Of a stretch of DNA of 64,000 nt, positions 22,016 to 51,860 are shown piece after piece. Below the pieces are notes generated by a model. That model searched no databases. It saw nothing but the letters and a program-made list of their open reading frames with translations, and was not told the origin of the DNA. The DNA comes from Negaprion brevirostris (taxonomy: Eukaryota). The stretch's first letter is position 1. Every line of letters begins with the position of its first letter. The position numbers and the translations under genes were made by a program. The DNA lies in NCBI GenBank assembly GCA_030324005.1, contig JARDVH010000097.1:67209578-67273577 (forward strand), read 5' to 3'.

Positions 22016-25000
22016 TTATAATGCAGATTCCTTTACAGTTCCATTGCCATCCAAAAAGTACTCGTCATCAGTAGTGGTGTCTGAGTTTGTATCTGAGTAA
22101 CAAGGAAAATTCTGTTTGTCAATCACAGCTGGTGTATGGTGTTGCTGTGGCGAAAGACTGTCCTCTGATATTTTGCTCCCCGTGGATGAAGAACTTAGGA
22201 GTCTCATTATATCAGAGGGATTTTCCTTGGGCCAGAATATTTTAATGTCTACAGGAAAATATTCATCATTCTGTCCTGCATTATCATTTACCCCTGGATC
22301 CTGATTTACTTTAGTGATGTGTGGATTAAAAACATCTTCACTTCTTGGAGATGAGGCTTTGTTGCGCAGATATCCAGGTTTCCACAATTTGTCCTCTACC
22401 AATACTCTTTTCAGGTTCTTAAGGTGTGTTTCTTTCTTTTTCTCCTCTTTGGAAACATTTCCAATCAAAATCTCACTAAATTTACTGCTATCGTATGAAG
22501 TCCAATTGTTATAGTCAGGCTCATTCTCATTAGAGAAAGGGAAATCAAAAGATGATTGAGAAAGTCTACGAGATTTTATACAATTTGAAACCTGGAGACT
22601 GGGGCGAGATTGCCTGTTGCGAACAGTTCGTTTAGGATTATGCAAACTGCCGGTGGAAAATACATTTTCATGATCTTGGAAGGGAGATTGGTTATAATCT
22701 GAATTAATGTCTTTCAAACTTTTTGCCTTATACATACCATCACACATATGTGAAATATTCTGTGGATTGGACCTTGGAGAACGTGTAAACCTGCAGTGTT
22801 TTTTCGAAAATCTGGATGTCCCTGTCTGTAAGTTATTGTTGACTGTATCATCTTCATCAATACTAGAGGAACTTGCTCTGAGTTGATAAAAATCATTGTA
22901 GGCGTTCAATCTATTGCGAAAATTATTAAGCTCTGTGATATCTGAATCAATTTGATCCTCATTTGAAGAGCTTTGCTGCGGCGAGGTAGAAATATTTGCA
23001 TTTTTCGTTCCCTTTGTCCGGTTCTGAAATGTTTCTCCACAGAACACTTTCCTTCTGCGTCTGAATATTTTGCCATCTCTTTTTGCATTGTCAAAGTCTT
23101 GTGCAGGGAAATCAACACGATTTGGTGAATGATCACATGTTACATTCCTGTTGTTATGTATAATATCAATGGGAGACAGAAGAGTGGGTGACAAATCATG
23201 TGGCGAAGAAATATCATTGATTAAATCCTTATTAAGTTGTTCACAACTGCCATAGTATCTTCTGGCCAAAGTGATACCACCACTTTTTGTCGTCTCTCTC
23301 AAATACTTACTTTTCTTGCTGCACGTGACACTTAAAAAAGAGTCTTGATCAATCAACAGATCCCGTGATGAAACAGTATTGTCAGTTTCTGATTTATAGC
23401 GCTTCATTTTAACATCACATCGTTTATTCAAAGACTGATCACTGGTTGGAAACCAATTCTGAAACTTTGTATTTTTGTCCCATGCAATGTCTGTATCAGG
23501 CAATAAGAAAGTTCCTCTATTGTTTTTANNNNNNNNNNNNNNNNNNNNNNNNNNNNNNNNNNNNNNNNNNNNNNNNNNNNNNNNNNNNNNNNNNNNNNNN
23601 NNNNNNNNNNNNNNNNNNNNNNNNNNNNTTAGATTTACAGTTTTCTAGATTCTTGATAGTTGCTGTGTCCATTACAAAGTCACTTCTATTTGGAGACTGA
23701 ACAGGTGATTTGCCTTGTTTACTTTTTCTGATATTTAAAGGGGACTGTTGTTCAACCAAAGAAAATTCATTGCCGGTTTCAAGTTTGTACTTCTGTAAAC
23801 AGCTATTATTTTTTCTGTTCATTATAAATTCCCCACTCAATGTGCATTGAGTTGATGATTTGTCTTGGGTGTTGCGAATGGTATCAGTGGTGAGCCAATG
23901 TCCGGTCATCTTAGATGGTGATGAGGGCGCACTATTAGTTTTATGTAAATCTTTAAAGTTTAACTTTTTGTAAGGTATTTTATCATGATAGGTTTCAGTA
24001 AAGTGTGATGAATAACTCAGCCTGAGATTTTTCGTGATATCTGTGATAGTGGTTGTGGACTGTGCGTCATTTAGTGAACCTAATGCTGGAATTGTGTTAG
24101 TTTCTAATGAGTTCACTTTTAAATGTTCATTGACACAAATATCTGCACTGACAGTAGCACAGTTCAGTGAACAATTCACTGTCTCACATTTGTTGCTATG
24201 TGTCTGAGGAGAACAGTGGCTGGACACTGAATAGAGTGATGGAATGATATGACTTGTCTTAAATTTGTCCTGATCATAATCCTGATTAATCACATCAACA
24301 TCAGTCCTAGCTGGCAAATAATTCAGTGGCATGTCCTTATAACCGTGTGTTGTCCTGGTAGGAGATTTTTGTTGAGTAACTTTATCTCCTGACAGCAGTG
24401 CACTTTTAGTTTCATGTTTGCAATTTTCCAAATAATCAGGTCTTTCTTGGTGTACATTGATGGCCACACTGTTTACCGAATGACGTGGTGACTTGTCTTC
24501 ATTGCTATGCACAATGTCTGTAGGAGACAACTGGCTGGATACCTGGTTCAGTGTTGAAGGCATAGACTCGGTCTCAAATGTATTCACTGCATCACAAGTA
24601 TTATTAGCTTCTCTGTCCACATTGATACCATCAATACTTAGGGAACGATCCTGCAATATATTTCTCCTGCCTTGTGTGATATTTTTACGGGTCCATTGTC
24701 TATTCAGTTTATCAGATGAAAGTGCACTGTTTTTGTCGGACTGGCATGTCGCTATAATTTCGTTACCTACTATCAAACTGATGTCATCTCTGACCAGGGA
24801 AAGTGTCTTTGATTTGTCTTCATTGCTGCTTTGAAGAGTNNNNNNNNNNNNNNNNNNNNNNNNNNNNNNNNNNNNNNNNNNNNNNNNNNNNNNNNNNNNN
24901 NNNNNNNNNNNNNNNNNNNNNNNNNNNNNNNNNNNNNNNNNNNNNNNNNNNNNNNNNNNNNNNNNNNNNNNNNNNNNNNNNNNNNNNNNNNNNNNNNNNN

Positions 25001-28000
25001 NNNNNNNNNNNNNNNNNNNNNNNNNNNNNNNNNNNNNNNNNNNNNNNNNNNNNNNNNNNNNNNNNNNNNNNNNNNNNNNNNNNNNNNNNNNNNNNNNNNN
25101 NNNNNNNNNNNNNNNNNNNNNNNNNNNNNNNNNNNNNNNNNNNNNNNNNNNNNNNNNNNNNNNNNNNNNNNNNNNNNNNNNNNNNNNNNNNNNNNNNNNN
25201 NNNNNNNNNNNNNNNNNNNNNNNNNNNNNNNNNNNNNNNNNNNNNNNNNNNNNNNNNNNNNNNNNNNNNNNNNNNNNNNNNNNNNNNNNNNNNNNNNNNN
25301 NNNNNNNNNNNNNNNNNNNNNNNNNNNNNNNNNNNNNNNNNNNNNNNNNNNNNNNNNNNNNNNNNNNNNNNNNNNNNNNNNNNNNNNNNNNNNNNNNNNN
25401 NNNNNNNNNNNNNNNNNNNNNNNNNNNNNNNNNNNNNNNNNNNNNNNNNNNNNNNNNNNNNNNNNNNNNNNNNNNNNNTGAATCCATTGCTGACGATACG
25501 TGGGCAATCTCCGATTTGTTTTGCTGTATATTATCTTTATTCAATCTTCTTTCCAATGTGATGTCACCAATATTCGGGGTCAAATTCTGTTGAATTTCTT
25601 TCCCTGTTGGTGTGACATTTGTTGGAGTTCGCTGGTCAGTCCCTCTGTCCTGTGAAATTGTACCACGGTTTCCCGATTGGTAATTTTGTAAATTAATGAC
25701 ACTTCCTGGACGCCTGAATGGAGAATGAGTGGCTGACTCGTTCACGCTGTTAGTTGTGCTAGTTGTAGGAAACTGTCGGTCGGTCGATGAACCTGGTGTT
25801 GTTGAAAGATCATGGATATCCTTTTGCAAATATTCATCACGTCCCCTGTCCATTGTGGCATTTCCACTAAGAGGGGAATGAGGCTGTGAATGGCTTTTGT
25901 TGTTATGAGAGAGAATTGAAGGAAACCACTCACTGGTGACTGGAGTTAGTGATAAGGATGTACTGTTTGCTTCGTCTGATATTTTAAACAGATCCAAAGA
26001 CTCCTTATCAGGAACAATTTCAGTTACCTCAGGTTCATTGCAGAATCGTTTATCATTCTTGATATCTGTGATAGTCAGAGTGGACTTTATATCATATAAT
26101 GAATCTATTGCTGGAATTGTGTTAGTTTCTTGTGAGTCCTTTTGTAAATGCTCATTGACTCCAATATCTGCAGTTACCGTGTCACAGTTTAGTGAACAAT
26201 TCAATGTTTTACATGTACTGCTTTCTGTGACATTACTAGAAGAATGGTAGCTGGACATTGGATCAAGTGTTGGAAGTATGTGACGTGAGTAAAATTCATC
26301 CTGATTAATCAAACTGACATCAGTCCTGGCTGATGAATAACTCAGTAGCTTGTCCTTACAGCTATGTATTGTACTTGTAAGAGATTTTTGATAAGTAACT
26401 TTATCTCCTGACAACAGTGCACTTTTAGTTTCATGTTTGCATTTTTCCAAATAATCAGGACTTTCTCGGTGTGCATCGACAGCAACAGTGTTTACCAAAT
26501 GACTTAGTGGCTTGTCTTCATTGCTATGCACAATGTTTGTAGGAGGCAACTGGCTGGATATCTGGTTCAGTGTTGAAAGCATAGACTTGGTCTCAAATGT
26601 GTCCACTGCATCACAAGTATCATTAGCTTCTCTGTCCACACTGATGCCACCAATATGTAGGAAACAATTCTGTAATACATTTCTCCTGTTTGGTGACATA
26701 TTTTTATGCCCATTCAGTTTATCTGTTGATGAAAGTGCACTGCTTTTGTCAGATTGGTATGTCTCTATAGTTTCATTACCTACTATCAAACTGATGTCAT
26801 CTCTGACCAGGGAAAGTGTCTTTGATTTGTCTTCATTGCTGCTTTGAAGAGTATTTTCAGGGAGCCACTGGCTGGTCACTGCAGTTGATGGTGAGGGCGC
26901 ACTCTTTGTTTTATGCAAAACATTTAATTTGAATTTGCCAGTTGGTCTCTTACGATGATAAATGTCAGTTACCTTTGTTACAGAATGCTGCAGTGTATTT
27001 TTCTTCACATTGGTAGCACCCACAGCAAAATGAGGAGGAGTGAAGGAATATACTGGTGAAGTGACAGGGCTGATTATAGATTTGTGCTGTTGTAAATTCT
27101 CATTTGTTTCTATGTCACCGCTCTCCAAGGAACGAGTCAGTGGTTTGTCAAAGTTACTTTGTGAATTAGGAGGAGGAGACTTTTGATCACTTAGTGCACC
27201 TGGTGATGGAATCGAACTGCTTTCCCCAGGCTGAGCATTTCCAGCATTCTTGGTAACTTCTGCACCCAGACTGTTGTCATCATTGAGTGGGAAGTGGGTC
27301 AATAGTTTGTGTGGATTTGTAGGAGTTGGTTGGTCAGACAGTGAATCAGACCGTGTAGGTCCAGTATCGTCCTTCTGGAAATGTTCATTGCTTCCTCTGT
27401 CCACGGTGACAGTTGGGCTGTTTGGTGAATAATTCAGTGACTGATATTTATTTCTGTGTGGAATAGTTGTTGAAAACTGTTGCCCAACCATTGAATCTGC
27501 CGCTGATGATAAGTGGGCAATCTCCGATTTGTTTTGCTGTATATTACCTTTATTCAATCTTCTTTCCAATGTGATGTCGCCATTATTTGGGGTCAAATGC
27601 TGTTGAGATTCTTCCCCTCCTGTTCTCTGGCCAGTCACTCTGCCATGGGAAATTGCACCATGATTTTCTGATTGGTAAGTTTCCACATTTTTGTCGGAAG
27701 ATTTCTCATCATGAGCAACTTCAGTTACCTTTGATGGATCAATGTGCATAGCACCTTTCTTGACATCAGTGACAGTGGACTGTAAAGCTGTTAATATTTC
27801 TGGTGATGGGTCTGTACCATGGTTTTCAGATTTGTTCTTTTGGAAAAAATGATTGCTTTCTCTCTCTGCATAGATATCATTGCTGTGTAAAGGATGAATC
27901 AATGATTTGTTCTGGTTGTTAGGTATGATATTTGAAGTCAGCCACAGCGCAGTCATCCCAGGTGGTGATGAAAGTGCTTGATCTGTTTTACCCAAATGCT

Positions 28001-31000
28001 TGGATTTGTATTGATCACAGGGCCCTTCATCACAACAGGTATCAGTTACATTTCTTGAATAATGCCCAAGTCCATTTTTCCTTATATTGGTGATTGCCGT
28101 AGGAGATTCTGGCAGATATTCCATAGCAGTACTTTGCAGTGGATCTGCTGAAAGATCCACACCACTGATTTCTGAGTTATCCTTCTGCAAATGCTTACTA
28201 AATTCAGTATCCACAGTGAAAGTAGAATTGTTAAATGAACAATTCAGTGACTTGCCTCCATATTTGGGTGTGATAATTGCAGTAGATGGATTGCTGATCG
28301 CTGGACCCAGGCATGAAGATGGNNNNNNNNNNNNNNNNNNNNNNNNNNNNNNNNNNNNNNNNNNNNNNNNNNNNNNNNNNNNNNNNNNNNNNNNNNNNNN
28401 NNNNNNNNNNNNNNNNNNNNNNGATGGATAAGTAGCTTTAGCTTTGTCCTGCTCTGTTTCTCTTGATATTTCAGCACTGTTTGGCAAATAATTCAGTTGA
28501 TCTCCGTTGGATGTGGTACTTTTAGGAGAAAATTGATGAGCCCCTTTATTTGACACAACTGCAGTGTTGCTTTCAGATTTGCTATTTTTCAAACAATCAC
28601 GACTATTCCTGTTCCTTGTGACATCAACACTGCTGAGAGAATGACAGAGTGGTTTGTGTTCATTGCAATGTTTGTCATCCATGAGAGACAACTGGTTAAA
28701 AACTGCATCCAGTGTAGAAAGAGCATTATCCATCTTAGATTTATCTGTTTTTTTGCCATCTTTAATAATTCCTCTCAGCATAATGATGTCAGCACCGTTC
28801 CGTTCCCAATTTTGAAGTGTACTTTTTGTACCATGTATAATACCTGAAGGTGTTTTCAAGTCAGTTGCTGTGTCTGATAACAAAATGACTTTGTAGTTTT
28901 CAGATTGGCCATTTTCTAAATTCTTCATAACATCTGATCTCACTGGGGAATTAATCAGTAATTTGTCTGTATTATCACGAGTATTTGTAGGGGACTGCTG
29001 GTCACTCATTATGTCTTCTGGTGAAATTGGAATATTTTTTTCAGATTGGTAATTTTCTGCATTCTTAATGGTTCCTGGGCTCATGTTGGTATTATCACTG
29101 AGTAGGAAATTAGTCAATGATTTACCTTGGCTGTCTATGAAATTTGTACGAGGCTCTTGGCCACTCAGTGAATCTTGTACTGACAGTTTATTGATGTTGT
29201 TAGATTTATCCTTTGGTAAGTATTCGTTGCTTCCATTAAGGGAGGAATATGTCAATAAAGTATTTTGCTTCAAATGGGATGTGACAGGTCCAGATGACAG
29301 TTCCTCATTTACTGTCTCAGATATGTTTTTCTGTGCATCGTTGCTGTTTTCATTGTTTGGGTAATACTTCAATGAGTTACCTTTGTTGGTGATTGTAAAT
29401 GAACATTGCATTACAACTGATGGTAATGTGGCCTTTTCACATTTATAATTTTGGACATCACGAACACTACATATTTCAGGCAAATTGCTATCGACAGTGT
29501 GAGATGGCCAATGCTGTGAAGTATTTTTCATACTGATATCTGAAGGCAATGTTTCATTTGTGTCTGATAACGATAGGACACAGTTTGAATCAGATTTATG
29601 CTCATTAACTGTTGCATCTGCAGTTATGTCAGTACTCTTGACTGAATCATCCAGTAAAAGGTACTCGTAGGTGGAACGTACAGGAAACGTATAGCTGAGC
29701 ACTTGATCTGTTGATAGTGTTATGCCAGCTGTTGATCTGTAGTTTTGTTTAGAATTTATATTCAAAAGGGTATTGTTGGTTGGTGACAGACTTTGGGAAC
29801 TAAATGCTTTGTGGTTTGGAGATTGTGTTATAGCCAGTTCTGTTGCATTACTCATTTCTGATTCATCATTTTGTGAAGCAGTACCTATACTGTCTAAGGC
29901 GACATCATCAGTTTTTGATTGATTGCTCAGTAATGCACTATGATGAAGAATTATATTTGTTACACATTTTGGATCTGCTGAAAGTTCATGAATGGTTTCA
30001 TGTTTAATTTTTTGTGAGCAACCATTACTAATTAGCTCAGTTGGTAATAAGGATGTGCTTCTTCCCTCATTTTCACAACTGTCTTTCCAACTGTTATTTT
30101 CGCTTTCTGGCATAGGGGCAGCTGCATCTCTTAATGTGACAGGTTCCACTCTGGTCTCACTTGCTATGAGATTATCTACTGAAGATTTTTCTTTCTCTGT
30201 GTATGTAAACAAAGGGATTCTTTCTCTACTGTCCATATTGCTTTGTAAATGATTACATGTACTTTGTACAGTAATATTAGTGTTATCTGACCCAGAATAT
30301 TGATGCCTAGTTTTGCTGCTGATCATGATAAATGAAGTAGCCATTGATTGGCACACTGGTTCTGATAGGGAAGGGGGACTAAGGGGTCTATTGTTACTGG
30401 TTTGCAAAGAATCATTGTTACTGTCTCTTTGGAAAGTGGCATCATCACAATTTTGCAAATCAGTATTCCACCTACTGTGAGTATATATGGAAAACAGAGG
30501 AGTGTGTGGAATATGTACTGAAACATGTGATGATTCTGATTTGTTATCATTTAAATAATCAGCCCCATCCTTTTTTTGTGAAGTACTGAGTGAACTATTT
30601 GACAAATTCTGTTGTTGCACATCTCTGTTGCCAAGGCTAAGACTACTTGGGCTTGTAATTGAGTTTAACGATGATGAAAATTCACTGTCTCTTTGTGAAT
30701 GGACATAAATATTGTTTGATAACTGGCTTTGCTGACTATTTCTGTTGCTATCAGCAACAACTGGAAGAGATTGCGATTTGGTTAGTAGGTCCAGTAATGA
30801 CGTTCTGATGATTTCATGCTTGCTGATTGACAAACAACTTCCAGTATCTGTTTTCAGAATGTCATTAGTATGGTTTATTGGCTGATTTTGAAACATATTT
30901 TGAGGCTCAGTAATAGAAGTCTGTGAGCCAGATGCTGAATTTGGTAACATTGCATTGTCAGTTTTGTATTGACCTATTTCAACAGAAGCATGAATGTTTC

Positions 31001-31228
31001 TTGACAGATGACTATGCTTCACATTTGCAATGTTGCATTGAACTGGCACTGACTGTAGTTCAGCATTTTCGCTTAACTCTGAAGAATTCAGCAAAATGTT
31101 GGTTTGATTGTCATTTCCATATTGTTTTGTGAGGTGGTCATAATTTTGAACACCTTCTTCTGTGGCAGTGTTTTTCAACTTGGAATTTCTTGAATCTTCA
31201 GTTCCCAAGATCTTTTCATGTTCATGCA
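22016..31228 (-). CDS. EXPH5: EXPH5 giant last coding exon (~9 kb, contains three N gaps)
   Basis: Acceptor TTTGCAG|TG at 31228. ORFs 23526..31262 and 22016..23503 join in frame if the 100-N gap at 23529-23628 is collapsed on its 3-nt overlap. Ends KESAL-TAA. Confidence 0.88.
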
Positions 31229-34200
31229 CTGCAAACACATAAATGATCAAGAAAATTAACAAATAATAATTTTCCCTCTGGCCTTACTGCACTACATTCT
31301 CTCAGGTCAAATCCTACAGTGATATTGTTGTTATCTGTCATACTGAACTCTGCCTCGCAACGGATGAGCGACATCTCTCAGATACTTCCTTCTACCTCAC
31401 CCTGGACCATGACCACACCACCAAACATCAAGCCATTGTTTCCAAGCTAGTTACTGACCCCACTGCTTCTGAAGACTTTCCCTCCACAGCCTCTGACCCT
31501 ATATAGCCCACTTCTACCTCCTTCCCAAAATCCACAAACAGGACTGCCCTGGTAGACCCATTGTATTGCCTGCCTCTGCCCCACAGAACTCAATTCTTCC
31601 TATCTTGATTCCATCCTCTTTTTCCCTTGTCCAGTCTCTTCCCACCTACACATGATTCCTCTGATGCCCTATGTCATAATCAACAATTTCCATTTCTCTA
31701 TTCCTAACTACCACCTCTTCACAATGGATGTCAGATCCTTCTACACCTCTAATGCTGCACTTTGAGACTCCATTGTTAAATCTTTTTTGTGTTTACTAAG
31801 AATTGTACAGCAGCTGCACCTAGCTCAAAGTGTCTCTATGCCCAAGAGGGCTTCAATCACTGGGGTAATTCCCCCTATGAGTCCCAGTAGATCCTCCATG
31901 TCAGGTGACCATTAATCTGCTGTCTTGCTCTTAAATGGACAAATCAACACAACTACCATCCCCAGTGAAGGGTTCTCGGTTTCTTCCTTTAGCAGAGGCC
32001 TGAACAATCCCAGTCCACCACCACTTTAGTGCCTTGCTGAACTTTGTGTCACTAAATAATTTCTCCTTTAACTTATCTTACTTCCTGCAAAGAAAAGGGT
32101 GGGGCTATGGGTACCTGCACGGCCCCAGTTTCTCAGTACCAACCACAATTCTTTCTCTGTTACATCGATAATTCTATCAGTGCCACTTCATGCTCTTGTC
32201 TGGATTTGGAAAAGTTTAATTGATTTTGCTCCCAATTTCCACCCCTCTCGCCTCCACATTGTTTGTCTCCAACACTGTCCATCTCCCTTGACCTGTGTGT
32301 TTTTGGTGATATACTGGCCACCAAAGTTCGTTGCAAACCCACCAACTCTCCAGCTTCTTTGACTATAGCTCCTCACAACCTGCTTCCTGCAAGGACTCCA
32401 TCCAATTGTACCACTTTTTTTGCCTGTTACATTTATTCTGATTATGCCACTTTCAAAAATGGCACTTCTGAAATGTCTGCCTTTTTCCCTTAACTGAGGT
32501 TCCCCCAGTTCATCTCCCCCTCCCAGAACCATGACAGGGTTCCCCTTGTCAACACACTTTCCACCCCAGCAGCCTCTGCATTTAAAANNNNNNNNNNNNN
32601 NNNNNNNNNNNNNNCATGTTGTTACCATGAAACACATTTCCCCCCACCCCCATCAGCATTCTGCAAGGACCACTCCCTACATAACACCCTAGATCACTCC
32701 TCCATCATACTCAATTCCCCATCCCCGTCCCATAGTACTTTCCCTTGCAATCACAGAAGGTGCGACATCTGCTCCTTTGCCTCCTCAGTATTCAAGGCCT
32801 CAAACACTCCTTTGGTTAAGCAGTGTTTCACTTGCACTTCTTTCAATTTGGTCTATTGCATTTGCTGCTCCCAATATGGTCTCCTCTACATTGGGAAGAC
32901 TAAATACAGACTGTATGACCGCTTTACTGACATNNNNNNNNNNNNNNNNNNNNNNNNNNNNACTACAAGCACTTCCTGACACTAGCCATTTCAGTTCAGC
33001 ACCTTGCTTTCATGCCCTCATGTCCATCCTTGGCTTGTTCCAATGAAGCCCAACACAAACAGGAAGAGCAGCATCTCATCTTTCAATTAGGCAAGTTACA
33101 ACCCCCAAGATACAAGATTGAGTTCAACAACTCAAAGCTGGTACTAACAAATGCCTCCTATAGATGTTTTGTTCATCTTCTTGGTTGTTCAAACCATTCA
33201 TAATTTTAAAAATATCATGACTGCTTTAACTTACCAATGATGGTCTTTGTTTCCAAGTCTTGGCAATGGATTTCAGAATGTGTCTGTCTACCAAAGTCAC
33301 AACACACATTTATTTTTCTTTCAGCATGGGGGGCTGTCACTGCCTTCAACCGTACCTAAGATAGATTGCATTCTCTTAATTAAATGATGTCTATTCATAA
33401 AATTTAATTCATTCGTGGGACATGGGCATCGCTGGCTAGTTAGCATTTATTGCCCATCCCTAGATACCCCAGGGCAGTTGAGAATCAACCACATTTCTGT
33501 GGCTCTGAAGTCACACGTAGGCCAGACCAGGTAAGGAGAGCAGATTTCCTTCCCTAAAATGGACATTAGTGAACCAGATGGGTTTTTTCTGACCAAAGGT
33601 TTCATGGTCATCAGTAAATTCTTAATTCCAGATTTTTTTTTATTGAATTCAAATTCTACCATCTACCATGGCAGGATTTGAACCCAGTTCCACAGAACGT
33701 TAACTGAGTTTGCAGATTAATAGTCCAGCAATAATACCACTAGGCCATTATGAATTATGAAGGGAGACTACACAGACTGTATAAAATACAGCACAGACAT
33801 TTTAAAATACAGAATATGTCCCTCAGTTTCTAAACTTTGTTCTTTCATTCTAAGTCACAGCTAAATCACTGAAAGTTTCCTCTTTAGTAAGAGATATGGG
33901 ATGGGAAATTGGATTACATTGTGCATTCATTTTTGAGTGCAAAGTGGATGCAACAAACCGCTATTTCAGGGTCCCTAGGAAAGCTGAAAAACATTCAACC
34001 CAAAATTGGGTAGGGTCATTTTCCAAGTGTCCCTGGTAGTTACCTAAACCTGTCATTTGGTCCCCTAAATATATGAATGACGTAACACCTGTTTAATCCC
34101 CTCAGAATTTTGATACTGATGAGTGTTGGAACTTGAGATAAACAAGTTAGCCTAAGTTATTTAGGTAGTATTAGATTGTTAGGTTGGAAAAGGGCCATTG

Positions 34201-37200
34201 AAACCCAGGTAACAAGCTAAGGATGCATACTAGACACAGGCAAAGACAGATGTACTGAATGTACTAGGTCCCTTTACTAGAATAAGATAGACACAAAGAA
34301 AACTTTTTGCAGGTAGGATTTTACATGGCTTCTAATGATTATCACCATCACCAGTGTACTACATACAAGATTCACCGCAGCAACTCAGTAAAGCTCTTCC
34401 AACAGCACCTACCAATCCACAACTTCTACCACCAGGAAGGACAAGGGCAGTAAACATGCGGAAACTCCACTGCCTTGGTGAGAATACATGTATTCTGAAT
34501 TAATCACAGCCAGTCAGAAAACAACTACTCATTAAATGTGATGATCTAAGAGGCTCATAGGATTCAAATCCAATCAATTTTAGACCATGCAAATGTGGAG
34601 TCTTTATAAATGGATCCACCCTGGTTCAATAAAAAGTGCAGGAGGGCATGTCAGGCATCTCTATGCAAACCAATGGTTGCAGGCTAGTGATTGGTTTAGT
34701 GAATTTTGATCCACAGTGACAGTATAAAGAAGGGGTTGTTGAGTGAACATGTGTGTGGTTTTGCAGTTGCTTAGTATGAATAGGCTTATGCAAAGGCTAT
34801 GTCAATTCTGAACCCTGAAGAAATAAAGAACTTTGCTTCATAAAATTGTTTACATCATTACTTCAACAGGCTTATCCCAGCTTTTGAAGGGGTTATCTAT
34901 AGACATTAAAGGAGCAGGACAGGTATTAGGCTAGTCCCATTCAAAGTTCTCAGCAGTCATTGTGACAAACAGCTAGCATTTAGTTTTTTTTGTGAGTACT
35001 TTTTAAATGGTAAAAATACTCCCATTTGGGGACTCAGTCCAATTTTGGCTCCATGCTGTTCCAAAAAACTTAATTTGTTAAGTTTTTGCAATTAAGTTTC
35101 AAGAATTCCCAAATGCTTTCTCTTTTAATGTGCTTGATGTCAAAAATGAGTATATTTCACCTAACTGAAAGGCTTATTTTATGTTCCCCTCCAAAAAAGT
35201 ATGCATGTGTTCCTTCAAAAACTCACAAATTGCATAGATCTCTTGCTGTGCCAACTTTTAAAGGTTCTAGTGATTGAATAAGCATAGAGAAGCAAATAAT
35301 TGATGGGATACAAGACTGCAGTCCCAATCTTGTCATATGAATGTTATTTGGGGAACCTTGAGCTGAATAATTTATACTGACTTCCTGGAACATTCTACTC
35401 AATTGGCTTTAGGGTTCACAACTGTTTTAAAAAATTCTTTCATGTGGGTATCACTGGCCAGACTAGCATTTTTTGCCCATGAGTAGGTTGTGGCGAGCCT
35501 TGTGCTTGATCCTTTGCAGTGTGCTTGATATAGATGCTGTTGGGAAGGGACATAGAATCCATACAGTGCAGGAGGCAGCCATTCGGCCCATCAAGTCTGC
35601 ACTGACTCTCTGAAAGAGCATCTTACCAAAGACCACCCCTCTCTCCCCGCCCCACCCCCCCNNNNNNNNNNTTAGCATGGCTAATCCACCTAACCTCTAC
35701 ATCTTTGGACATTGTGAAGCCTCCGCTGCTAGATGCTGGACAATAATTCATCTAGCCATGAATTATTGTCCACCATAATTCATGGCTAGATGTGACTGCA
35801 GAGCTTTGATCTGATCTGTTGATTGTGGGATCACTTAGCACTGTCTATCATACGTTGCTTCTGCTGTTGGCATGCAAGTGTTCCTATGTTGTAATTTTCC
35901 CACATTGACAAGTCACTTTAGGTATGCATGGAGATGCCTGACATGCCCTCCTGCACTTTTTATTGAACCAGGGTGGATTCTCTGCCTCAAATGGTAGAAG
36001 GGGATGGTTTACCAGAACATAGGTTAGAGATTGTGATTGAACATCATTCTGCTCTGCTGAAAGCTTACAGCCTTTCAAGGATGCCCAGTTTGGAGTTGTT
36101 CTGAACCTATTTAGCACAGTGGTTGGGCCACACCAAGCGATTGAAAGTATGCTCATTGTTAGGACAAGACTTCATTTTCACAAGGACTGTGCTGACCACT
36201 CAAAGTGAAACCTCATCAAAACTGAAATCATGCGTCTGAAATCAATGCCTAATGTTGTTCCGCATTCATATCCTCAGCTATCCGTTTACAAGTAGGAGAA
36301 TTTCTTTATCTTCAAAAGAAATCAAATTAGAATAAGGAAACAAATTTTCTTCCTTTCTTTTGGCTTAATTGGGTTTTATCTTTCTCCCTTACCCTTTAGG
36401 GATTAGAACTTTTATCGTGGGTGTAAGTGATCAGCATTAACATGTCAATAGTACTGAGTTGCAGACAACTTATAGACTTCAACTGGTGTGTTTTGAAAAT
36501 GAAAGCAATATTAAACAAAGATACTTTTTCACCATCTCTCCTTGCCCTTGTCAAACTGTAATGTTTATGGAACACAAAGAAAGTAAAGGAGAAAACTACA
36601 GGCCTGCAATTTGATTACAGACACTCAAAACTGAGAGCTATGAATTCAGGACTTAAATTGTTCAGTGTTTAGTAGAAGGCCAGTGGAAATGTTTAATTGT
36701 GTGTGTGGTGATTGTAAACAATGGGTTTTACCAAGATGAAATTTAAATAATGTTCCCTGTGCTCTGCAGTTTTTCCCACATATTTAAAATTAACAAAACT
36801 CTTACCCTTAGTTGCGAAAACATGTTTGTGGATTCCGGTTGCAATGAATTGTAGTTACTGCATCTACCAGAATAAATATTAAACATTAAGAACAAATTTA
36901 CATTAGAAATAGGAGCAGGAGTAGGCCATCTAGCCCTTCGAGCCTGCCCCGCCATTCAATAAGATCATGGCTGATCTGTCNNNNNNNNNNNNNNNNNNNN
37001 NNNNNNNNNNNNNNNNNNNNNNNNNNNNNNNNNNNNNNNNNNNNNNNNNNNNNNNNNNNNNNNNNNNNNNNNNNNNNNNNTCCGGTATCAGCCTAGTAAA
37101 CCTCCTCTGCACTCCCTCCAAGGTCAAAATATCCTTGCGTAAGTGCGGCGACCAAAAAACACAAAACTTGTGTTTACATAATATCTTTCATATCCTCAAG

Positions 37201-40200
37201 ATATCCCAAAACACTTTGCACCCAGTGAATTACTTTTTGAAGATTGGTCATTGTTGTTAGAGACAAATGTGACACAACTTGCAAAAAGCAGGGTCCACAA
37301 ACAACAAATTGCATACCCAATTAATCTATCCTGTTTTAGTCTGGTAAGGGATAAATTTTGGTCAGGATCCAGTGATAACTCTCCTGCTATTCTTCAAATA
37401 GTGCCATAGGATCTCTTACATCTACCCATTGAATTCTTGTGATGTAGAGATATTGGCTCTCAGGTACCTCAGAACATATTCATTGATACCCATCGGAATT
37501 CCAATGCAAGCATATTTCTGATACTTATGTGGGAAGTTTAAGCTTCTAATTCCCAGCTTTTCCCTGCATGGATTGCTCTGTGATTGGCCAGAACTACGCA
37601 AACTTGGGCTCGTTAACCTATACGCACCCAGATTTTTACAGATTTAATTTGATTGTATACCTTCAGCAGTGAGGTCTATGAGTGCCATTTGTGGGTGAGG
37701 CTTTGGTGGTCAGAAAAGGAATGGCGAAGAAGTGTTAGGAATCTCCTCTCTGCATAGGACAATAAGTAGGACATGCCATCTCCATTACAGTATCATTAAA
37801 GGCAGGAATCACTACAGTCCCATGATTTCTGACACTCCCATAGTTACCTTTCTTGGACTGTACTTGTCTGACCCATGGTTTGCAATCACTGAGGCTTGCT
37901 GGGAGAAACCTGAACACCTGCTAACTCCTAGCTTGGATGCAATGCCCGATAGAGGCTGGAAGTGGAGGTTTGGCTGTTCTCAGAGAGGAACAGCTCCTCA
38001 GGATGTGGTTCTAGACTGGTGTGCGACGGTGGGGGGGAATGTTCAGGAAGTGTTTACAATGGTGCAATCCAGCAGCAGAAAGGTTGGCTTTTGAGTCAAT
38101 CTGTGACTGGGAAAGCTCTGTAGTTTAGTTGGTATCTGGAAAATAAAGATGGCTTACACATGAAACATTAATTTTTCTCTTTCAAACGAGGATTCATTTG
38201 TTGGGTATTCCTAATATTTTCAGATTTTAGGTACCAACAATTATTTATTTGTAAGTTACAGCCCTATTTTAAATGACAAATGTAGAAACAGCACATCAGT
38301 TAAGCTTACTGGTTTTGTTCCGAATGAGACTCTGTGTTTTGGCTTGAAGATTCAGAAGAAGTGGAGAGCCTGGAAGCAGGATCAAGACAGTCATCTCCCC
38401 GGGAATGACCTGAAAATTTTAAAAGATTGATCCCATTTTTTCTCTGCGGAGAGCTTTTTGATTGTGGAAGCTTCAAGTCACTTAAAGCTGGAAGAGAAAC
38501 AGGCAGGTGGAAATTGCATTGATGGATTACAAAACTGTCTTCATGATTCACTGTGAATGTAAAGTGTTCTTCCCCTCATGGAATTGGGCATAAAAATTCT
38601 ATTAAATTGTAGTTTAAACAGTGACTAAACACAGCTATTAGCAAAAATGCATGATCTTCAGATAACAATTGTATAATAGGTAACATCCATTAAGAATTAT
38701 ACATTACTAATCAGAATTACATAACATACCTATTATATATAAAATGGTATGATGTCAGCATTTTAAAAAGGTACTGCAGCAGAGGATGATTCTGGGAGCT
38801 GAACATCATATTGAACAATGGTAACCAATTGCATTGGGGTACCTCCTAAAGTTGTGACAACTTCAACTGGATCCTCTCATCATAGGACAACCCTCTCATC
38901 CCAGGGACCAATCGACTGAGCCTTTTACTGTACTACCCAATGTAAACCGATCTTTTGTTAAGAGGAAAGGAACCTGGGTATCGTTGCTCTTAAGTCATTG
39001 AAAGCTAATATGCATGTGCAGTGAGTAATTAACATGTTGACTTTTATTGCAAGAGGAATTGGGAGTTTTGATGTCTTGTCTCATTTGTAGAGAAACTTGT
39101 TTGGATGCACTTGGAGTTGTGTGTACAGTTTTCGTCCCCTTACCCAAGGAAGGATATACACGTGATGAGTAAGTGCAGTGGAGGTTTAACAGACTAATTC
39201 TTGGAATGGGAGAGATTGAGGAGAGTTTAGAAGAAAGAGACCTTTCCACTCCCCCAAATCTTTAACGAAAAGATTACTAATTAGGCCTGTCATATTGCGC
39301 AATCATCAATTTAAGAATGAGAGGTGATCTCAATTAAACACACAAAATTCTCAAAGGATTTGAAAGGGTAGATGCCAAAAGAATGTTTGACTGAACTCAA
39401 TCTAGAACTAGGACTGAGACACAGGAATTTCTTCACTCAGAAGATGGGGATTTTTTGGAATTAGGACTAGGGGGGTGTGTGGGCTCAGTCATTACATATG
39501 TTCAAAACAGAAATTGAGAGAATTCTAGATACTAAAAATATTGAAGGATAAGGGGATGGTGTGGGGAAAATAGCATTGAGGTGGAAGATCAGCCGTAATC
39601 TAGTTGAACAGCAGAGCAGGCTTGAGGGGCCGAATGGCTTTCTCCTGCTCCTATGTTTGTGTACTGTGAAGAAGATGCATAATATTGCCAAATTGCCCAG
39701 CATAATTTATTCTGTTGATGCCTTTAAGGGACTAGGGTTTACTTTAGCTACTCTCCTTCATTTTATATTTAGTAAAAACTCTTGCAATCTGTTTTTATAT
39801 TATTGGCTTATTTCTTCTCATTCTATTTTTTACCCTTTTTAGGGGCTTTTTCTGTCCCCCTTTGGTGGTTTCTACAACACTCCCAATCCTCAGGCTTTGA
39901 GTTATTATAAGCCTCTTATATAATACTACCTGTAATTTCCGCACTAAAATTACAAATGTGTTCTTGTCGACTTTGTGTCTTAATGGAATGCAATTTTGTT
40001 GAACATATTGAATTGTTTCTTTATTTACTACCACACCTTTCACCCTATTTACCCAATGTTAACCATCTCTCCCCTCATCCCTATCCAATTGGTTTTGTTT
40101 GGGTTTAAGATGCTTCCAGGACACTTTTAAACTTAATATGCAACTCAGTTGTATTACACAGTTACTCACACTGCCCTTGCACCCCCCCCAAAATTCTTTA

Positions 40201-43200: not shown

Positions 43201-46200
43201 AAACAAAAAGTGACCTTGATGAAATCTATACTTAAAAAGAGGTACTGTCCTAAAAAAGCCAACTGGTTTGATATGAAATAAACTAATGAATTCAAGTGAT
43301 TGCAATAAAAGATTTAAATAATAATTCATACCACAAAGAAATTTCAAGCAAAGTGATTCAGCTAAGAACTCGGACATTTTCTAACACATTTGAATCAGAA
43401 GATCAAATTACTACCACTTAAAGCCAGTTCTGGGAAGTGAGGTGGCTGCAACAGATAGTGGAAATGGCTGAGAAAGGGTCACTGGTAAGAAGAACATTGA
43501 ATAAATGTTCAGCAAGTGGGCTCCTGATGCAGGATGCAGACAGGAGCAATGATCCACACACAACCAGAGGGCCTTTCCAGACAGACATTGCAAAGTCAGT
43601 GGAATCATTCCACAATCCATGCTAGTCCGAGAACTAGAATGTAGTGCCACATGAATTTTACCCTCGCATAACAGTAAAAGGAATTCATCTTCAAATGCCA
43701 TTACCTTTGAAATAAACTTCACTAGTCTCAGATATTGCTCAAGTCACTGCCTCCTCTCCTTCACTCACCTACCATATCTCACTTCTGTACCTTTATCTCA
43801 TGCCAGCACACTTAACACTGCTGCAAGTCTTAGGAATGTTCTGAGGTTAAGTTGAGATATCAGAGGGGGCACACCAACAAGTCTCCAAACAATCCATCTA
43901 ACTAACCTTTTAAGCACTGCTGGCCCTCACATGTGGCACAGCCAGCAGATTACACACTAAACTTATCAGCCAACTCAGTACCCATCAAACTAAAGTGGAA
44001 GCAAGTCATCTGAAGTCAAGTCATCCTGAATTCCAAGGGACTGCCTAAGGAGAGGGGGTATGCTAAAATTGAGGGACAATGGAGAAGCAGGAACAAGCAG
44101 ATGGGTCAGCAACATCTTGTGATTTGTTAATATCAGATCTGTCAGCATTGTGGAGGCATGAAAGTGACCCCCCCCCAATCACCGTAACCTGCACATTTAG
44201 CACGGCCAAGCCACCTAACCTGCACATCGTTGGACTGTGGGAGGAAACCAGAACATCCCAGAGGAAACCCATGTAGACACTGGGAGAACGTACAAACTCC
44301 ACATAAAGAGTTACCCAAGGCTACAAATCGAACCTGGGTGCCCTGGTATAGCAGCGCTAACCACTATGCTACAAAAAAAAAGCCAAGGTAGACTTTCTTG
44401 ATAAATGTGATAGTTGTGACAAGTTCCTTCATTATGAAATAGGAATTATTACAATTCATTTAAGTATTATGTTAGAGAAAAATGACAATGTGTTTCTGAA
44501 CAAAAAGATGGAAAAGCTTGGTTTTAAATTACTATCGAATATTGAAATTGCTAAATTTCTATTTCTAACCCTTTTAGTTTAACTTTTTNNNNNNNNNNNN
44601 NNNNNNNNNNNNNNNNNNNNNNNNNNNNNNNNNNNNNNNNNNNNNNNNNNNNNNNNNNNNNNNNNNNNNNNNNNNNNNNNNNNNNNNNGCAGAGAATTCC
44701 AGAGATTCACCACCCTTTGAGTGAAGAAGTTCCTCCTCAACTCCGTTCTAAACTGCCCCTCCCTTTATCTTGAGGCTGTGCCCTCTAGTCCTAAACTAAC
44801 TCTAGTCACAAACTATTCTCTGTCTCTACCAAGTTTAGATCATAAAAGATGATTTACTAACCTGTTTTTCTTTCTCAAACTCCAGGTATGGGGCATTTTA
44901 AGTATCTTGGTTAAGTCCGTCTGATCCTTAAATTTTGCATTCCTTATTTCTTCAAACCATTGACCCGTTACACCTTTCAACCATAATTTGTCGTGATTTG
45001 TGTTATAGAGATCCCTAAAAATGAAACCAACCATTATTAATATTACAAAGAAAAAAAATTGCACCAGGCATTTAAGCGATCTTTCCAGAAATGTGAAAAA
45101 TTTCTATCAACCATGTCACCATCATTGTGTTTCAACAATTCTTTGTTTCTGTGGATGTAGGGCATCAGGGAATAACTCCGTTTCACTATTACTAACATCC
45201 AGATAGCATCAGAAAACTGATACGTTGACATTCAAATGACTTTCAGAGCTTTTGTTCCATGCAGTAGTAGACTATATTGAGATAATACTTTGGCGATAGT
45301 TATCACAATGCCATCCAATGTGTGCAGGATATTGTTCATATCAGAATTATGGACAGTTCCTCCAGTATCAGAGGGACACACAAATACTCGAAGGCTAATA
45401 TAAGTGCACTCAAACTATGACAGGAAATTGCATTTGACTGCTCCAGCACAGTCATAACTTACTATACATTTATAGTAATATAAAACAGAACATTCATAAT
45501 ATAAAAGAAAACAATGCCAATGTTTGTTGTCATCTCATTTGTTAAGACTCCCGATGACCTATAAACAAATTTTTCCTTGACTTCATAGTGCAGTCAGAAA
45601 TATTTTACTGTCCCGCCCACCATGTGAATCGTAGCGGGCGAGAGGAGGACCATAGAAAGGTCTGTTGACCTCAGGCATAATTTTCCAGTTTCGGAGCGTG
45701 TGGATGGCAAATCTTGCCCTCTCAATATGATGAGATGTGCTCTCCCAACAGGACACAAAGATGCTGCTGGAAACAAACAAATTCATGGATGACAATCTAG
45801 TTTAACTGAACTCTGTCTAACTCTTACCACCTGCAACTGTATGAAAATTAGTACAATAACTAGATACAAGTCCACCCTACAGTGTGCAATTTGTCAATTA
45901 TTTGTATTCCTCCTTATCTGTATCGCCTTCATTAATCTGATTGATTGTCACACAAGCTCTCTCTGATTAGCTCAGTGGCACATTTACAGCACTGAAAGAT
46001 TAATAGGGAGAATATCCATANNNNNNNNNNNNNNNNNNNNNNNCTAACTTTGAGTTTTGTGTTATGGCCAGCTGGATTGATGTCCTTTTCTCCTTTGTTA
46101 CCATTTTTTAAAAAAAATGCAAACATTGCTTTTTACATAATGTGATTTACAGGGTGTAAATTTGCAAAATGACAATTCTGCTGCATAAAAGTGCTCACTT

Positions 46201-49200: not shown

Positions 49201-51860
49201 TTAACATCGAGGACTGAAGGTCAGAAATGAATTAGTAAAGCATTACTGACAAACTGGGCACTGGAAGCCTGGGGTATTTTTTGTCATATGTTCTAGAAAC
49301 AACTCTATAATCAAAACACATCACAAAAGATGCAATTCTGACAAAGCTCATAATCAAAGACACATTTTTGTTTTAAAACAAAAGCGGGGGGGAAAAAAAA
49401 AAGAGGAGAAAAATCAGAAAATGAGTGACTCCACCATCACCAACAATAGCAGGCTACAATAACTCATGTTTCAAATCATGAAGCCAGGCAAACAACATCC
49501 TCATTTGGAGGCACTGATGATGATAATAACTGCACATCCTAAGCACTGTATTGGCTGTAAACTTTGAGATGATCTGGAAAAGCACATGTCTAAATGCAAA
49601 CCTCTCTTTTTTCTCCTGGAAGTGACATTGGATACATAATATCTGTCCAAACATGGGGAGGCACAGTATAACAGGATCCAAATGACAGGATCACAGCATG
49701 TTGTGTATGTGCAACGTTCTGAGCCACTAAACTGCTCGGGATGAACCTCAACAAAAACCACTGCCTTTTCTTCCAGGTCTTTTCTGCAAAGATACATTCC
49801 AGGATGGGCAGACATTAATCTCTTTCTGAGAAGACTGTCAAAGTTATTTGTCAGAATGCCTCATCCTCAGAAGTATCAAGACTGTAGTAAGATGATCCAA
49901 ACCCAAAATGTTAACTCCGTTTTTCAAAGATTTATCTTCAGACCTGCCAAGGGTTTATGCAGCATTTTCTCTTTTTACATCAAGACATGGCTGGACTGGA
50001 GGCAAGAAGGGCCCTCCCTGTCAGATCCTTTTGGAGTCTCACCCTCTCAGCATGTTGCCCTCAAAGGGGCTGCATTGGGGAAGAGACTCTTATCTACCTC
50101 CTTCCGGAATATGTCTTTACCGAGGTGGTCTGGAAAGTGATGCAGTGGTATTTGTCAAAGGTCATCTTGCACAGCTCCATGACGCAGCCCTCTCTGCGCT
50201 AAGGGCTGTTCACATACTGTACAGCTCTCGAGAATCATCAACTTGGTGAAAGACATTCTTTGTTGAATGTGACTGAGCAGTGCAAACTGGCACATTCCAA
50301 GGTCCAGAACTGTGTGTTGAGGGACACAAGTTTGAGGCAGCCAATGCAAAGGCATCTTAGGCCTTTCAGTGATTGTGAAAGGAGGGAGACAGTGAGGTAG
50401 TGGTGTTGTCACTGAACTAGTAACCAGAGGTCCAGGGCAAGATCTGGAGGCCTGCCTCTCCAGAGCCACAGGAATGTGATTGACTCCTAAATGGAGGGTA
50501 GTTATGGATGCTGGTCCAGCCTGTAACACTCATATGCCATAAACATTTTTTTAATTAAACGCTGGAAAATGGGTGAATCTCCTTAGGCTAGGTGTAATGA
50601 TTATTATAAGTTGTAAATGAGTAACGTAGTTTTGAAGGAAACATAGTTGATTAGTTTACAAAATGCCAACTTTGAAAGGTCTTCTAGATATCATAGGAAG
50701 AAAGTATACTTCTGGAAAGAAAATCCCCGATACCCATCGTTATGGACTGCCAGGGAGCAGAAATCCCCTCCCCCCCCCCGAAACGTAGAAGTAATTGATT
50801 TTTTTAGCAATTTACCATAGTAATATCGCTATGAAACAGAACTTAATATGGGGAAGGTATGGTTGGCACAAATCTGCAACCTGTTATTCAGCAGTCCAGA
50901 ATATTATCTCGCTGATATATTGGATAGACGTATATTTCCCTAATTCAAATGTTTATCCACGTAACTGTCTTTTTTTGAGTTGCAAGGTCCGCATTCTGGA
51001 AACAGTGGCTGTAGGAATTAGTGACGCTGCTTCATTGATTTTATGGCGCTCGGATGAGGAGATCAAACACTGGAGGAGTTGGTTAGTGAGCGGAGAGAAT
51101 TGAAAGCACCCAGCAGCAGTCATTCTGGACACGGAAACTTGTCTTGCGTAGGCACACTCATCGGGAAGTATGTGGAGAACAGGCGAAATATCTCCTAACC
51201 CATACTTGACTCAGATGGAAATTGGTCAGAGTGGTGGCACTCTCAATGTTAGTACTTGCTTATTGTTTGTATTCGTATAATTTTTACGATAATGATAGTT
51301 TGCCAAGTCCTCAAGATTAAACATTTCCTTTATAATTTTGCTCTGTAACAGTTCCACCACGCTAACTTTCATGGGTTACGGGTAACTCTATACTTTCGGC
51401 GCTTGTGTTTTGTGCCCTTACCCTTTCCAGTTTGTTAGTATTGTTAAATTTTTTTGTTTCTGCTCGTTTCCGACACCAAAGCAGACAAAAAAAACACTCG
51501 ATTTCGAAATAAGAGACTGAGAATATTAAAATCGGGTAATAAATGTATCGCTGCATTGTTACAGTATTTCTAGCATGCTTTAAAAAAAGTAACCAGTTTA
51601 CTTCACAATCAAAAGCATTTTTGAGACAATCCCTGGCTCCGCATTTCAACAAGGGTCAGATACCGCTGTCAATATCTCCCGAGCAACTCAAGTAATTGAA
51701 CACAGACTAGTTTGGTTACATACTTCAGCCTCTCATTGTTCATCCTCTGAACCGCCTTATCCCGCTCCAGCACATCCAGAATCGCATTCACTTCCTCCTT
51801 GCTCAGGAAACTCAGATCCACCGAGTGCTTTGTTTTGGGCGTCCTTAAACGGCAAGACAT
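22016..51860 (-). CDS. EXPH5: EXPH5 exophilin-5 (Slac2-b), Rab27 effector; gene span of 6 coding exons, ~3200 aa
   Basis: N-terminal Slp-homology domain without a zinc finger (DLSFLSKEE..IL.VLERD / GVTGQWFEEI). Huge Ser/Thr/Asn-rich last exon with EXPH5-type C-terminus SDTTTDDEYFLD...KESAL*. Neighbour of POGLUT3. Confidence 0.9.
23630..29100 (-). repeat. Coding tandem repeat array inside EXPH5 exon 6; two ~2.0-kb copies (about 27690-25690 and 25690-23640) plus an older partial third copy
   Basis: TLQSSNEDKSKTLSLVRDDISLIVGNE and GDITLERRLNK.NIQQNKSEIAH each occur twice, at an offset of 2013 nt; CKHETKSALLSGDKVT also occurs twice. More diverged matches at ~28240 and ~28700. Confidence 0.9.
24840..25478. 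other. Assembly gap (639 N) inside the second EXPH5 repeat copy
   Basis: N run whose length equals that of the paralogous segment 26853-27491. Confidence 0.97.
31295..33135 (+). mobile_element. Decayed Penelope-like element (RT + GIY-YIG endonuclease)
   Basis: Remnants LDHD.TTKHQAIV, FYLLPKIHKQDCPGRPIV, LFTMDVRSFYTS, GAMGT, YIDN, GLLYIGKTK, EEQHLIFQLG. Confidence 0.85.
33235..33355 (-). CDS. EXPH5: EXPH5 exon 5 (VRLKAVTAPHAERKINVCCDFGRQTHSEIHCQDLETKTII)
   Basis: Acceptor TCTTAG|GTA, donor TTG|GTAAGT; 121 nt and open; phase 0-1 matches the exon 6 acceptor. Not in the ORF track. Confidence 0.62.
33405..33750 (-). mobile_element. tRNA-derived SINE, near full length; related copy at ~54890-55225
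   Basis: Reverse complement begins TGGCCTAGTGG (A box) ... GGTTCAAATCC (B box) and ends in the GATGGGCAATAAATGC tail. Confidence 0.75.
35550..35712 (-). mobile_element. HE1-type SINE fragment
   Basis: CATAGAATCC.TACAGTGCAG...TTAGCATGGCTAATCCACCTAACC. Confidence 0.75.
36806..36863 (-). CDS. EXPH5: EXPH5 exon 4 (CSNYNSLQPESTNMFSQLR)
   Basis: Acceptor GGTAG|A, donor AGG|GTAAGA; 58 nt; phase 2-0 links exons 3 and 5. Confidence 0.65.
36895..37160 (-). mobile_element. Young CR1 fragment collapsed around a 100-N gap
   Basis: LEGVQRRFTRLIP on one side of the gap and the CR1 3' tail on the other. Confidence 0.8.
38310..38480 (-). CDS. EXPH5: EXPH5 exon 3 (DLKLPQSKSSPQRKNG...SEQNQ)
   Basis: Open frame between a polypyrimidine tract and donor CCA|GTAAGC. 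The exact acceptor (38480 vs 38487) is ambiguous; only 38480 keeps frame with exon 2. Confidence 0.65.
38955..39660 (+). mobile_element. CR1 LINE 3' fragment
   Basis: QF.SPY..KD, R.RGDL, NFFTQK remnants, and tail GAGGGGCCGAATGGC..TCCTGCTCCTATG. Confidence 0.72.
40346..40645 (-). mobile_element. HE1-type SINE, near full length
   Basis: (ATAGA)n tail, HE1 core, tRNA-like head GGCACAGTGGTTAGCA. Confidence 0.85.
44180..44375 (-). mobile_element. HE1-related SINE
   Basis: CCACCTAACCTGCACATC.TTGGACTGTGGGAGGAAACC core and tRNA-like head. Confidence 0.75.
44862..45014 (-). CDS. EXPH5: EXPH5 exon 2 (SHD2: WLKGVTGQWFEEIRNAKF)
   Basis: Acceptor TTTTAG|G, donor CAG|GTTAGT; Rab27-binding TGxWF motif; 153 nt. 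Confidence 0.87.
47340..48000. mobile_element. RTE LINE fragments (minus ~47340-47460; plus ~47820-48000)
   Basis: PGGQ.K.F...LK remnant and C-terminal PSGTICPICDIVCRTTIG zinc-knuckle remnant. Confidence 0.5.
49690..50360 (+). mobile_element. L1/Tx1-like LINE 3' fragment
   Basis: QDMA...RRALPVRSF...CP.RGC.GEET..LL.E.VF...VWK.MQW.LS zf-RVT region; LAHSKVQ. Confidence 0.75.

Follow-up and report, generated by a model that had tools for sequence, protein, structure and literature searches.

The repeat units of filaggrin are processed to a structural protein. In primates, these large tandem coding units lie in one exon of a gene related to skin and vary in copy number between species, and birth-and-death evolution with purifying selection is favoured by the authors who described them (PMC5225520). 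The ensemble repeats of spider MaSp are higher-order coding units of variant monomers that are homogenised within the gene; they number 10-26 units of 3-6 monomers, often with introns, and are under structural selection (PMC9779670). In the connectin/titin of cartilaginous fish, a giant protein has been lengthened by duplicating a higher-order unit, the 6-Ig super-repeat, which consists of folded Ig domains encoded by many exons and acts as a molecular spring (PMC12241362). In this work, we describe a repeat array in the exophilin-5 gene (EXPH5) of the shark Negaprion brevirostris, located in a stretch of 64,000 nucleotides (nt) that we call the window (assembly GCA_030324005.1, contig JARDVH010000097.1, positions 67,209,578 to 67,273,577 of the forward strand).

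Shark EXPH5 resembles MaSp in its homogenised higher-order units, filaggrin in its large tandem units within one exon of a skin-related gene and in their species-variable number, and titin in the way in which a giant protein is lengthened. However, it has 2-3 units of 13 monomers in one exon, of which only the middle is homogenised while the sequence drifts, in contrast to MaSp; its pattern points to conversion of an old duplicate, in contrast to filaggrin; and its repeats are apparently unstructured and confined to one exon, in contrast to titin. With bony-vertebrate EXPH5 (Slac2-b), it shares a Rab-binding domain at the N-terminus, the lack of a C2 domain, a giant, rapidly evolving last exon, an acidic tail and a downstream gene with Filamin and Glyco_transf_90 (GT90) domains (PMC10511049, PMC4695416, 10.1101/672238). 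Whereas the named bony orthologues have 1499-2858 amino acids (aa) and no monomer match, the shark protein has about 3200 aa and combines an array of monomers with a doubling of the 13-monomer unit. Our literature search, which did not extend to subscription papers and supplements, found no paper on the shark EXPH5 array. The architecture is apparently undescribed, the process is known, and the function is likely modest.

We consider it probable that a block of 13 repeats in the shark EXPH5 array was doubled early, that its core has been homogenised, and that the repeats form a disordered linker tolerant of changes in length. The horn sharks split off roughly 200 million years ago, and the block (2 kb) was likely doubled before their separation from the other galeomorph sharks. 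The core has likely been kept near-identical since then by gene conversion and unequal crossing-over: exchange between misaligned copies would overwrite the core and the edges would erode, and reciprocal products of crossing-over may have been fixed in living lineages, as three cores in carpet sharks and as one in catsharks. Selection would act mostly on the open frame, so that the tail gets made, and on one basic block of 37 aa, rather than on the sequence or the copy number of the monomers.

The preliminary description of this DNA had reported two long in-frame copies offset by 2013 nt at two anchors. Self-BLAST agrees with it, and both copies of the 2-kb unit lie in one frame (open reading frame (ORF) 23526-31283). 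Positions 24031-24839 match 26056-26852 with 81% nt identity over 819 columns, the offset changing from 2013 at the gap edge to 2025, and positions 25489-25687 match 27502-27682 with 79%, the offset changing from 2013 to 1995 further out. Identity peaks at the edges of the gap, where the copies share 60 of 60 nt at its low side and 53 of 60 at its high side, and drops to 75% about 200 codons away. The indels between the copies at the DNA level are 3, 9, 12 and 18 nt long, apart from one pair of 1 and 7 nt that nets 6. A third, more diverged partial copy, also reported earlier, was recovered as well: the segment 28482-28670 resembles both copies (67.5-69.8% nt identity; E 4e-9 and 8e-11), with 28% aa similarity over 28973-27825.

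The large unit of 671-686 aa consists of 13 monomers in fixed order (13 x 52-53 aa). The array in the window is a higher-order repeat, that is, diverged monomers in fixed order are repeated as a larger and more homogeneous unit, so the term "higher-order" used in the preliminary description holds for a reason that it had not given. In the window, autocorrelation has maxima at 53, 107 and 157 aa (z 8-13). Mustelus, Carcharodon, Cetorhinus and Heterodontus show this series as well (z up to 29), carpet sharks and catsharks show it more weakly, and Narcine has no peaks. In Heterodontus, monomers separated by 12-13 places pair with scores of 170-278 versus less than 100 for most others. An iterated monomer profile of 41 positions, for which 28 reversed or shuffled controls yielded four matches (best 11.6 bits), detects 32 copies in the window, and the counts are 28-43 for ten sharks and 17-29 for three batoids; a profile built from sharks only still finds 14-23 in the batoids. 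Since the monomers occur in sharks and in the three batoids, the array is older than the shark-ray split. No match was found in 20 bony-vertebrate EXPH5 sequences or in 47 long phmmer matches, in line with the earlier expectation that the array is not present throughout vertebrates. The most conserved columns of the monomer over 314 copies are E (67%), L (63%), S (62%) and Q (58%). The model of Leucoraja erinacea (P0007, 4044 aa) contains repeat units of its own in aa ~1500-3300. Tandem Repeats Finder detected seven short arrays in the whole window and none of the EXPH5 array, to which it is blind because the monomers are too diverged, and self-BLAST of the whole protein was uninformative for the array.

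The comparison across species uses protein models only. Two cores each are present in Mustelus, Carcharodon, Cetorhinus and Heterodontus, three in four carpet sharks, one in two catsharks, Narcine and Hypanus, and five in Leucoraja, where the units are shorter and its own. The four two-core sharks have in common a doubling with an orthologous junction between the cores, which catsharks lack: the Mustelus junction is 62, 59 and 48% identical to those of Cetorhinus, Carcharodon and Heterodontus, respectively, versus 42% to its own paralogous shoulder. The cores are 92-95% identical within each of these four species, versus 62-74% between orders. The near-identical tract extends over ~400 aa in Mustelus, ~560 in lamniforms, ~600 in Heterodontus and ~230 in the window, with lineage-specific edges.

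Informative columns in the core group by species rather than by position at ratios of 72:0, 110:0 and 95:0, compared with 9:19, 13:10 and 19:12 in the shoulder that follows the core. The trees, both calculated without Leucoraja, separate in the same manner. The core tree is ordered by species, as for Heterodontus (100/100), Mustelus (99/96) and Carcharodon (91/93), and places all 12 of the 12 carpet-shark cores in one clade (100/100). The shoulder tree, a quick search without bootstrap, sorts by position: the 13 inner shoulders form one clade (Shimodaira-Hasegawa-like approximate likelihood-ratio test (SH-aLRT) 99), and the two inner shoulders of carpet sharks form a single clade (SH-aLRT 100). 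Cores sorted by species, shoulders sorted by position and an orthologous junction together point to one old duplication that was homogenised lineage by lineage. By these comparisons, the array would represent an old duplication under concerted evolution and not a recent doubling, with paralogues more alike than orthologues and a duplication that is older than the species compared. Two observations count against continuous exchange. The Cetorhinus cores are unpaired, core 1 grouping with Carcharodon (85/81), and between these two lamniforms the test of paralogues versus orthologues does not resolve for Cetorhinus; moreover, the carpet-shark cores sort by position within their order. Homogenisation has therefore been episodic. 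The preliminary description had called the expansion lineage-specific, and this is appropriate for galeomorph sharks with regard to the doubling and for elasmobranchs with regard to the monomer array. In a narrower sense it failed, because the duplication is apparently old and looks recent through its homogenised core.

The two equal offsets of 2013 nt are not independent measurements, because positions 24840-25478 are a gap of N. The gap size is backed independently by Mustelus, which has 215 aa between the same anchors versus 213 in the window. In addition, contigs were compared from four of the 24 listed sequencing runs, one of which (X1) is possibly the source of the window itself and so not independent. 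Runs X6 and X15, from two other organisms and two studies, each contain a contig that joins 27491 to 25479, that is, back by 2013 nt, and represent the core by one contig, in which 530-540 nt of the core hold 13-14 differences relative to the window. In X1, a single contig covers 26776-27452, two versions start at 27423-27537, and the depth is 12.1 over the core versus 7.7 and 5.4 beside it, which fits two collapsed copies but does not give a copy number. In X17, the stretch is covered in short pieces and no joint between the copies is shown. Over ~27240-27450, there are two versions of the contig in X6, X15 and X17, one of them with a 12-nt deletion in X6 (window 27341; 27253-27448), so that the homogenised tract stops about 150 nt earlier in these organisms than in X1. 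The lineage-specific tract edges and, at the contig level, the single core contigs of three runs are consistent with conversion or with crossing-over and do not separate the two. We infer that the 639-N gap marks the place of the second core, collapsed in short-read assembly owing to its near-identity with the first.

A different account would be that each shark order duplicated the unit independently and recently, or that the window was misjoined. Such events would explain the clustering of cores by species, which is what recent duplicates would show, and the window assembly is indeed gapped, with the core of copy B unsequenced. However, the junction and the inner shoulders have orthologues in different orders, both cores occur in four chromosome-scale RefSeq models free of X, and the offset is the same where contigs from two other organisms link the copies; we therefore regard this account as highly improbable. 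A single copy, which according to the preliminary description would have exposed a haplotype misjoin, was not found: the Mustelus spacing, the contigs of other organisms and the RefSeq models with both cores confirm that the duplication is real and not an assembly artefact. Apart from the EXPH5 exon, identical stretches of 26-28 nt were seen on either side of 100-N gaps at 20240-20395 and 55200-55360 (offsets 128 and 139); these duplicated flanks point to unmerged contig overlaps, with the 100-N gaps as placeholders.

We next consider what the repeats do. The estimate of dN/dS between the copies, which had been suggested as a check, is 0.78 (0.54-1.2) for a stretch of 263 codons and 0.57 (0.25-1.5) for one of 63. 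Among 39 of the 142 differences to relatives, 26 are nonsynonymous and 13 synonymous, where 10.7 synonymous ones are expected under neutrality (P 0.25). The frame, in contrast, is intact: comparison with Mustelus over 2777 aa gives 360 differences, none of them a stop, whereas at least 17 stops are expected, the indels between the copies preserve the frame, and the sequenced parts of the exon are open, as had been claimed for some 9 kb. Ser, Asn and Thr make up 32% of the last exon. AlphaFold2 with 13 alignment rows predicted one helix of eight residues (pLDDT 35, pTM 0.12), which is a weak test given so shallow an alignment, and the ESM Atlas gave no structural lead (best 0.76); these models thus offer no sign that the monomers would fold or pack on their neighbours as a structured repeat protein. 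The EXPH5 of axolotl (P0030), Discoglossus (P0043) and bowfin (P0056) contain unrelated short tandem repeats of ~14, 25 and 10 aa by eye. Near-neutral aa change, the lack of a predicted fold and the intact frame together suggest a disordered, length-tolerant linker that delivers the tail, and the repeat array is probably in the main a flexible spacer of variable length between head and tail. Several points weigh against this: the dN/dS intervals are also compatible with mild purifying selection, the 39 differences had been selected from the 142, a low pLDDT from a shallow alignment is no proof of disorder, pure drift may not explain monomer columns that have been recognisable since the shark-ray split, and the basic block lies inside all the independent expansions. 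The preliminary description had proposed an extensible spacer or a multivalent scaffold. The spacer is supported by the near-neutral change, the absence of a predicted fold, the gain and loss of units and the unrelated repeats of bony vertebrates; the scaffold is less well supported: it would depend on one conserved basic block, and a single copy suffices in catsharks, Narcine and Hypanus.

The basic block is the only internal window with more than 0.6 identity between a catshark and two batoids (0.72 versus a median of 0.33), and 13 of the 30 invariant columns of the orthologue alignment fall in it. It is present once in Narcine, Hypanus and two catsharks, twice in four sharks, three times in four carpet sharks and five times in Leucoraja, where each of the independent units of 285-405 aa holds one. 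A profile of eight bony-vertebrate blocks picks the shark block with up to 7.8 bits, versus 0.8 for the best of 84 controls (hhalign P 0.0017). In a 12-row bony alignment, of which four rows have named taxa, the block ranks 8th of 93 tiles, with only head and tail tiles above it. The bony block was found in 8 of 21 rows, those named being two birds, a marsupial and a rodent, and its match to the shark block is reciprocal but weak. A possible resemblance to WH2/thymosin actin-binding sequences was dropped, as the search of the PDB gave no support.

These data allow two other explanations of the repeats to be weighed against the linker. In one of them, the basic block would be homologous to the conserved block of bird and mammal EXPH5 and would serve as a motif that binds a cytoskeletal element, an acidic membrane or some partner protein, the duplications would be kept to multiply it, and conversion would keep the copies interchangeable. 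Its standing as the sole island of internal conservation, its occurrence in 1, 2, 3 or 5 copies with an independent origin in Leucoraja, and the bony profile and tile rank favour this valency tuning. On the other hand, the seed rows of that profile were found with the shark profile, and the score falls to 1.7 bits versus 0.1 for controls when three such rows are removed; no block was found in the named amphibian or ray-finned rows; the block is located close to the middle of the duplicated span, in which conversion would continue in any case; and it has no match in the PDB at E 10. In addition, catsharks lost a copy, which suggests that extra copies are dispensable, and one copy in Chiloscyllium plagiosum has a deletion. 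We regard valency tuning as unlikely. In the other explanation, the monomer itself would be functional, for instance as a phosphorylation-regulated spacer with one S/T-P site in each repeat or as a repeat that folds on a partner, and the length of the array would be selected. The regular 53-aa spacing in 28-43 copies, the conserved columns and an excess of S/T-P pairs in sharks (1.2-1.7-fold over expectation) are what it would predict; however, S/T-P pairs are equally enriched (1.75-1.95) in the EXPH5 of gar, bowfin and bichir, all without the monomer, and substitution is near-neutral, no fold is predicted and bony orthologues lack the monomer. It seems improbable to us, and we retain the linker.

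A bolder extension, which on the sequence comparisons at hand we think rather doubtful, is that the basic block may be an unrecognised binding motif of exophilin-5 in sharks, birds and mammals, its valency tuned independently in sharks and skates (1, 2, 3, 5) on a scaffold of 53-aa repeats, with its copies held interchangeable by gene conversion. If true, the shark gene would point to the missing effector module of the human skin-fragility protein, in which no domain has been assigned to the C-terminal 1900 residues. In any case, one short block is singled out that can be directly tested in human EXPH5. The EXPH5 region described here is "uncharacterised" in databases for every shark model retrieved. 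It is a clean example from nature of a coding duplication in two copies: in several shark orders the core was homogenised independently, and the two reciprocal products of crossing-over are apparently fixed in living lineages. It also calls for caution, in that near-identity does not date a duplication and short-read shark assemblies break at the EXPH5 core. The EXPH5 exon, which evolves rapidly in amniotes and serves there as a phylogenomic marker (bioRxiv 10.1101/672238), would mislead in sharks.

The coordinates of all features are summarized in Table 1.

Table 1. Features of the EXPH5 gene and its repeat array (positions in the window)
Feature	Positions	Strand	Evidence
EXPH5 coding exon 1: ATG, first half of Rab-binding domain	51724..51860	-	tblastn with shark orthologues 69-74%; GT donor
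EXPH5 exon 2: second half of Rab-binding domain, GQWF motif	44862..45014	-	orthologues 77-83%; AG/GT ends
EXPH5 exon 3	38310..38487	-	orthologue alignment, splice-site check
EXPH5 exon 4	36806..36863	-	orthologue alignment, splice-site check
EXPH5 exon 5	33235..33355	-	orthologue alignment, splice-site check
EXPH5 giant last exon, ~9.0 kb coding, sequenced parts fully open	22016..31228	-	ORF list; 86-90% aa, collinear with Mustelus P0009
Array of degenerate ~53-aa monomers	23700..29230	-	30 profile matches in span, 2 more upstream, ~4 more expected in 639-N gap
Older, diverged partial copy of large unit	27825..28973	-	28% aa; 67-70% nt at 28482-28670
Copy A of 13-monomer unit: upstream shoulder, core, downstream shoulder, DNA-alignable	26056..27682	-	self-BLAST
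Homogenised core	26776..27452	-	run X1: one contig for both copies; two contig versions begin 27423-27537
Conserved 37-aa basic block within core	26892..27002	-	identity windows, catshark versus two batoids
Junction between two cores, orthologous across two-copy sharks, absent in catsharks	25584..26351	-	86% to Mustelus
Copy B of unit, gap included	24031..25687	-	self-BLAST
639-N gap, inferred collapsed core of copy B	24840..25478		Mustelus 215 aa there; X6, X15 contigs join 27491 to 25479
100-N gap, no coding sequence lost, flanks overlap 5 nt	28323..28422		both sides meet at Mustelus aa 1072
100-N gap, about no coding sequence lost, flanks appear to overlap 3 nt	23529..23628		sides at Mustelus aa 2634 and 2636
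Conserved C-terminal tail, acidic TTTDDEY motif at end	22016..22450	-	stop 22016-22018; AATAAA at 21181

Orthologues, head, tail and synteny all bear out the earlier assignment of the gene, which on this evidence is shark exophilin-5. The closest protein is a model of Mustelus asterias (P0009), collinear across all four sequenced segments of the last exon with 86-90% aa identity. Word-based protein searches returned elasmobranchs only, and the bony orthologues surfaced with phmmer. The top non-elasmobranch phmmer matches are exophilin-5: eight of the 10 clusters looked up are named exophilin-5 or EXPH5 and two are uncharacterised. Names were obtained for 10 of the 90 new matches, and none of the named sequences is from a chimaera, a squalomorph shark, coelacanth or human. 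The acidic TTTDDEY..KES tail is also found in 20 of the 47 long phmmer matches. The N-terminus of a skate orthologue (P0008) matches the Rab-binding domain of Slp2-a (3bc1_B, E 7e-5), whereas Pfam gave no family above the cut-off in the exon segments or orthologues, the Rab-binding head included, and no C2 domain in the four exon segments or five orthologues.

The head is encoded by five small exons (51860-33235, - strand). The end of exon 2 is in phase 2 and the beginning of exon 3 in phase 1, while the orthologues read R-T-A over the join; this mismatch requires a 5-nt micro-exon, or a piece within 200 N, between them. No canonical candidate was found in intron 2 (38488-44861), which includes the 200 N. 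When the 5-nt piece is assumed and the 5- and 3-nt flank overlaps at two 100-N gaps are taken into account, the coding sequence totals 9657 nt and 3218 aa, a near match to the 9645 nt and ~3214 aa counted previously.

Mammalian exophilin-5 binds GTP-Rab27 and takes part in vesicle secretion (PMC10511049; PMC13205666), and by analogy the shark head is predicted to bind Rab27 on secretory vesicles. Loss of this vesicle-transport gene causes skin blistering in people. The human disease mutations (codons 466-1929) all lie within exon 6, so that a single giant last exon is ordinary for EXPH5, and truncation at Pro1929 is disease-causing (PMC4695416).

Directly downstream of EXPH5 on the same (-) strand, five of the 112 ORFs (962-15110) represent exons of a gene with Filamin and Glyco_transf_90 domains. 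We take this neighbour to be of the POGLUT3/KDELC2 type, and POGLUT3 likewise lies downstream of EXPH5 in human. Finally, intron 5 contains a broken ORF on the + strand (32494-32979) with Cys pairs and a YIGKT motif, which resembles the GIY-YIG end of a Penelope-type retroelement.

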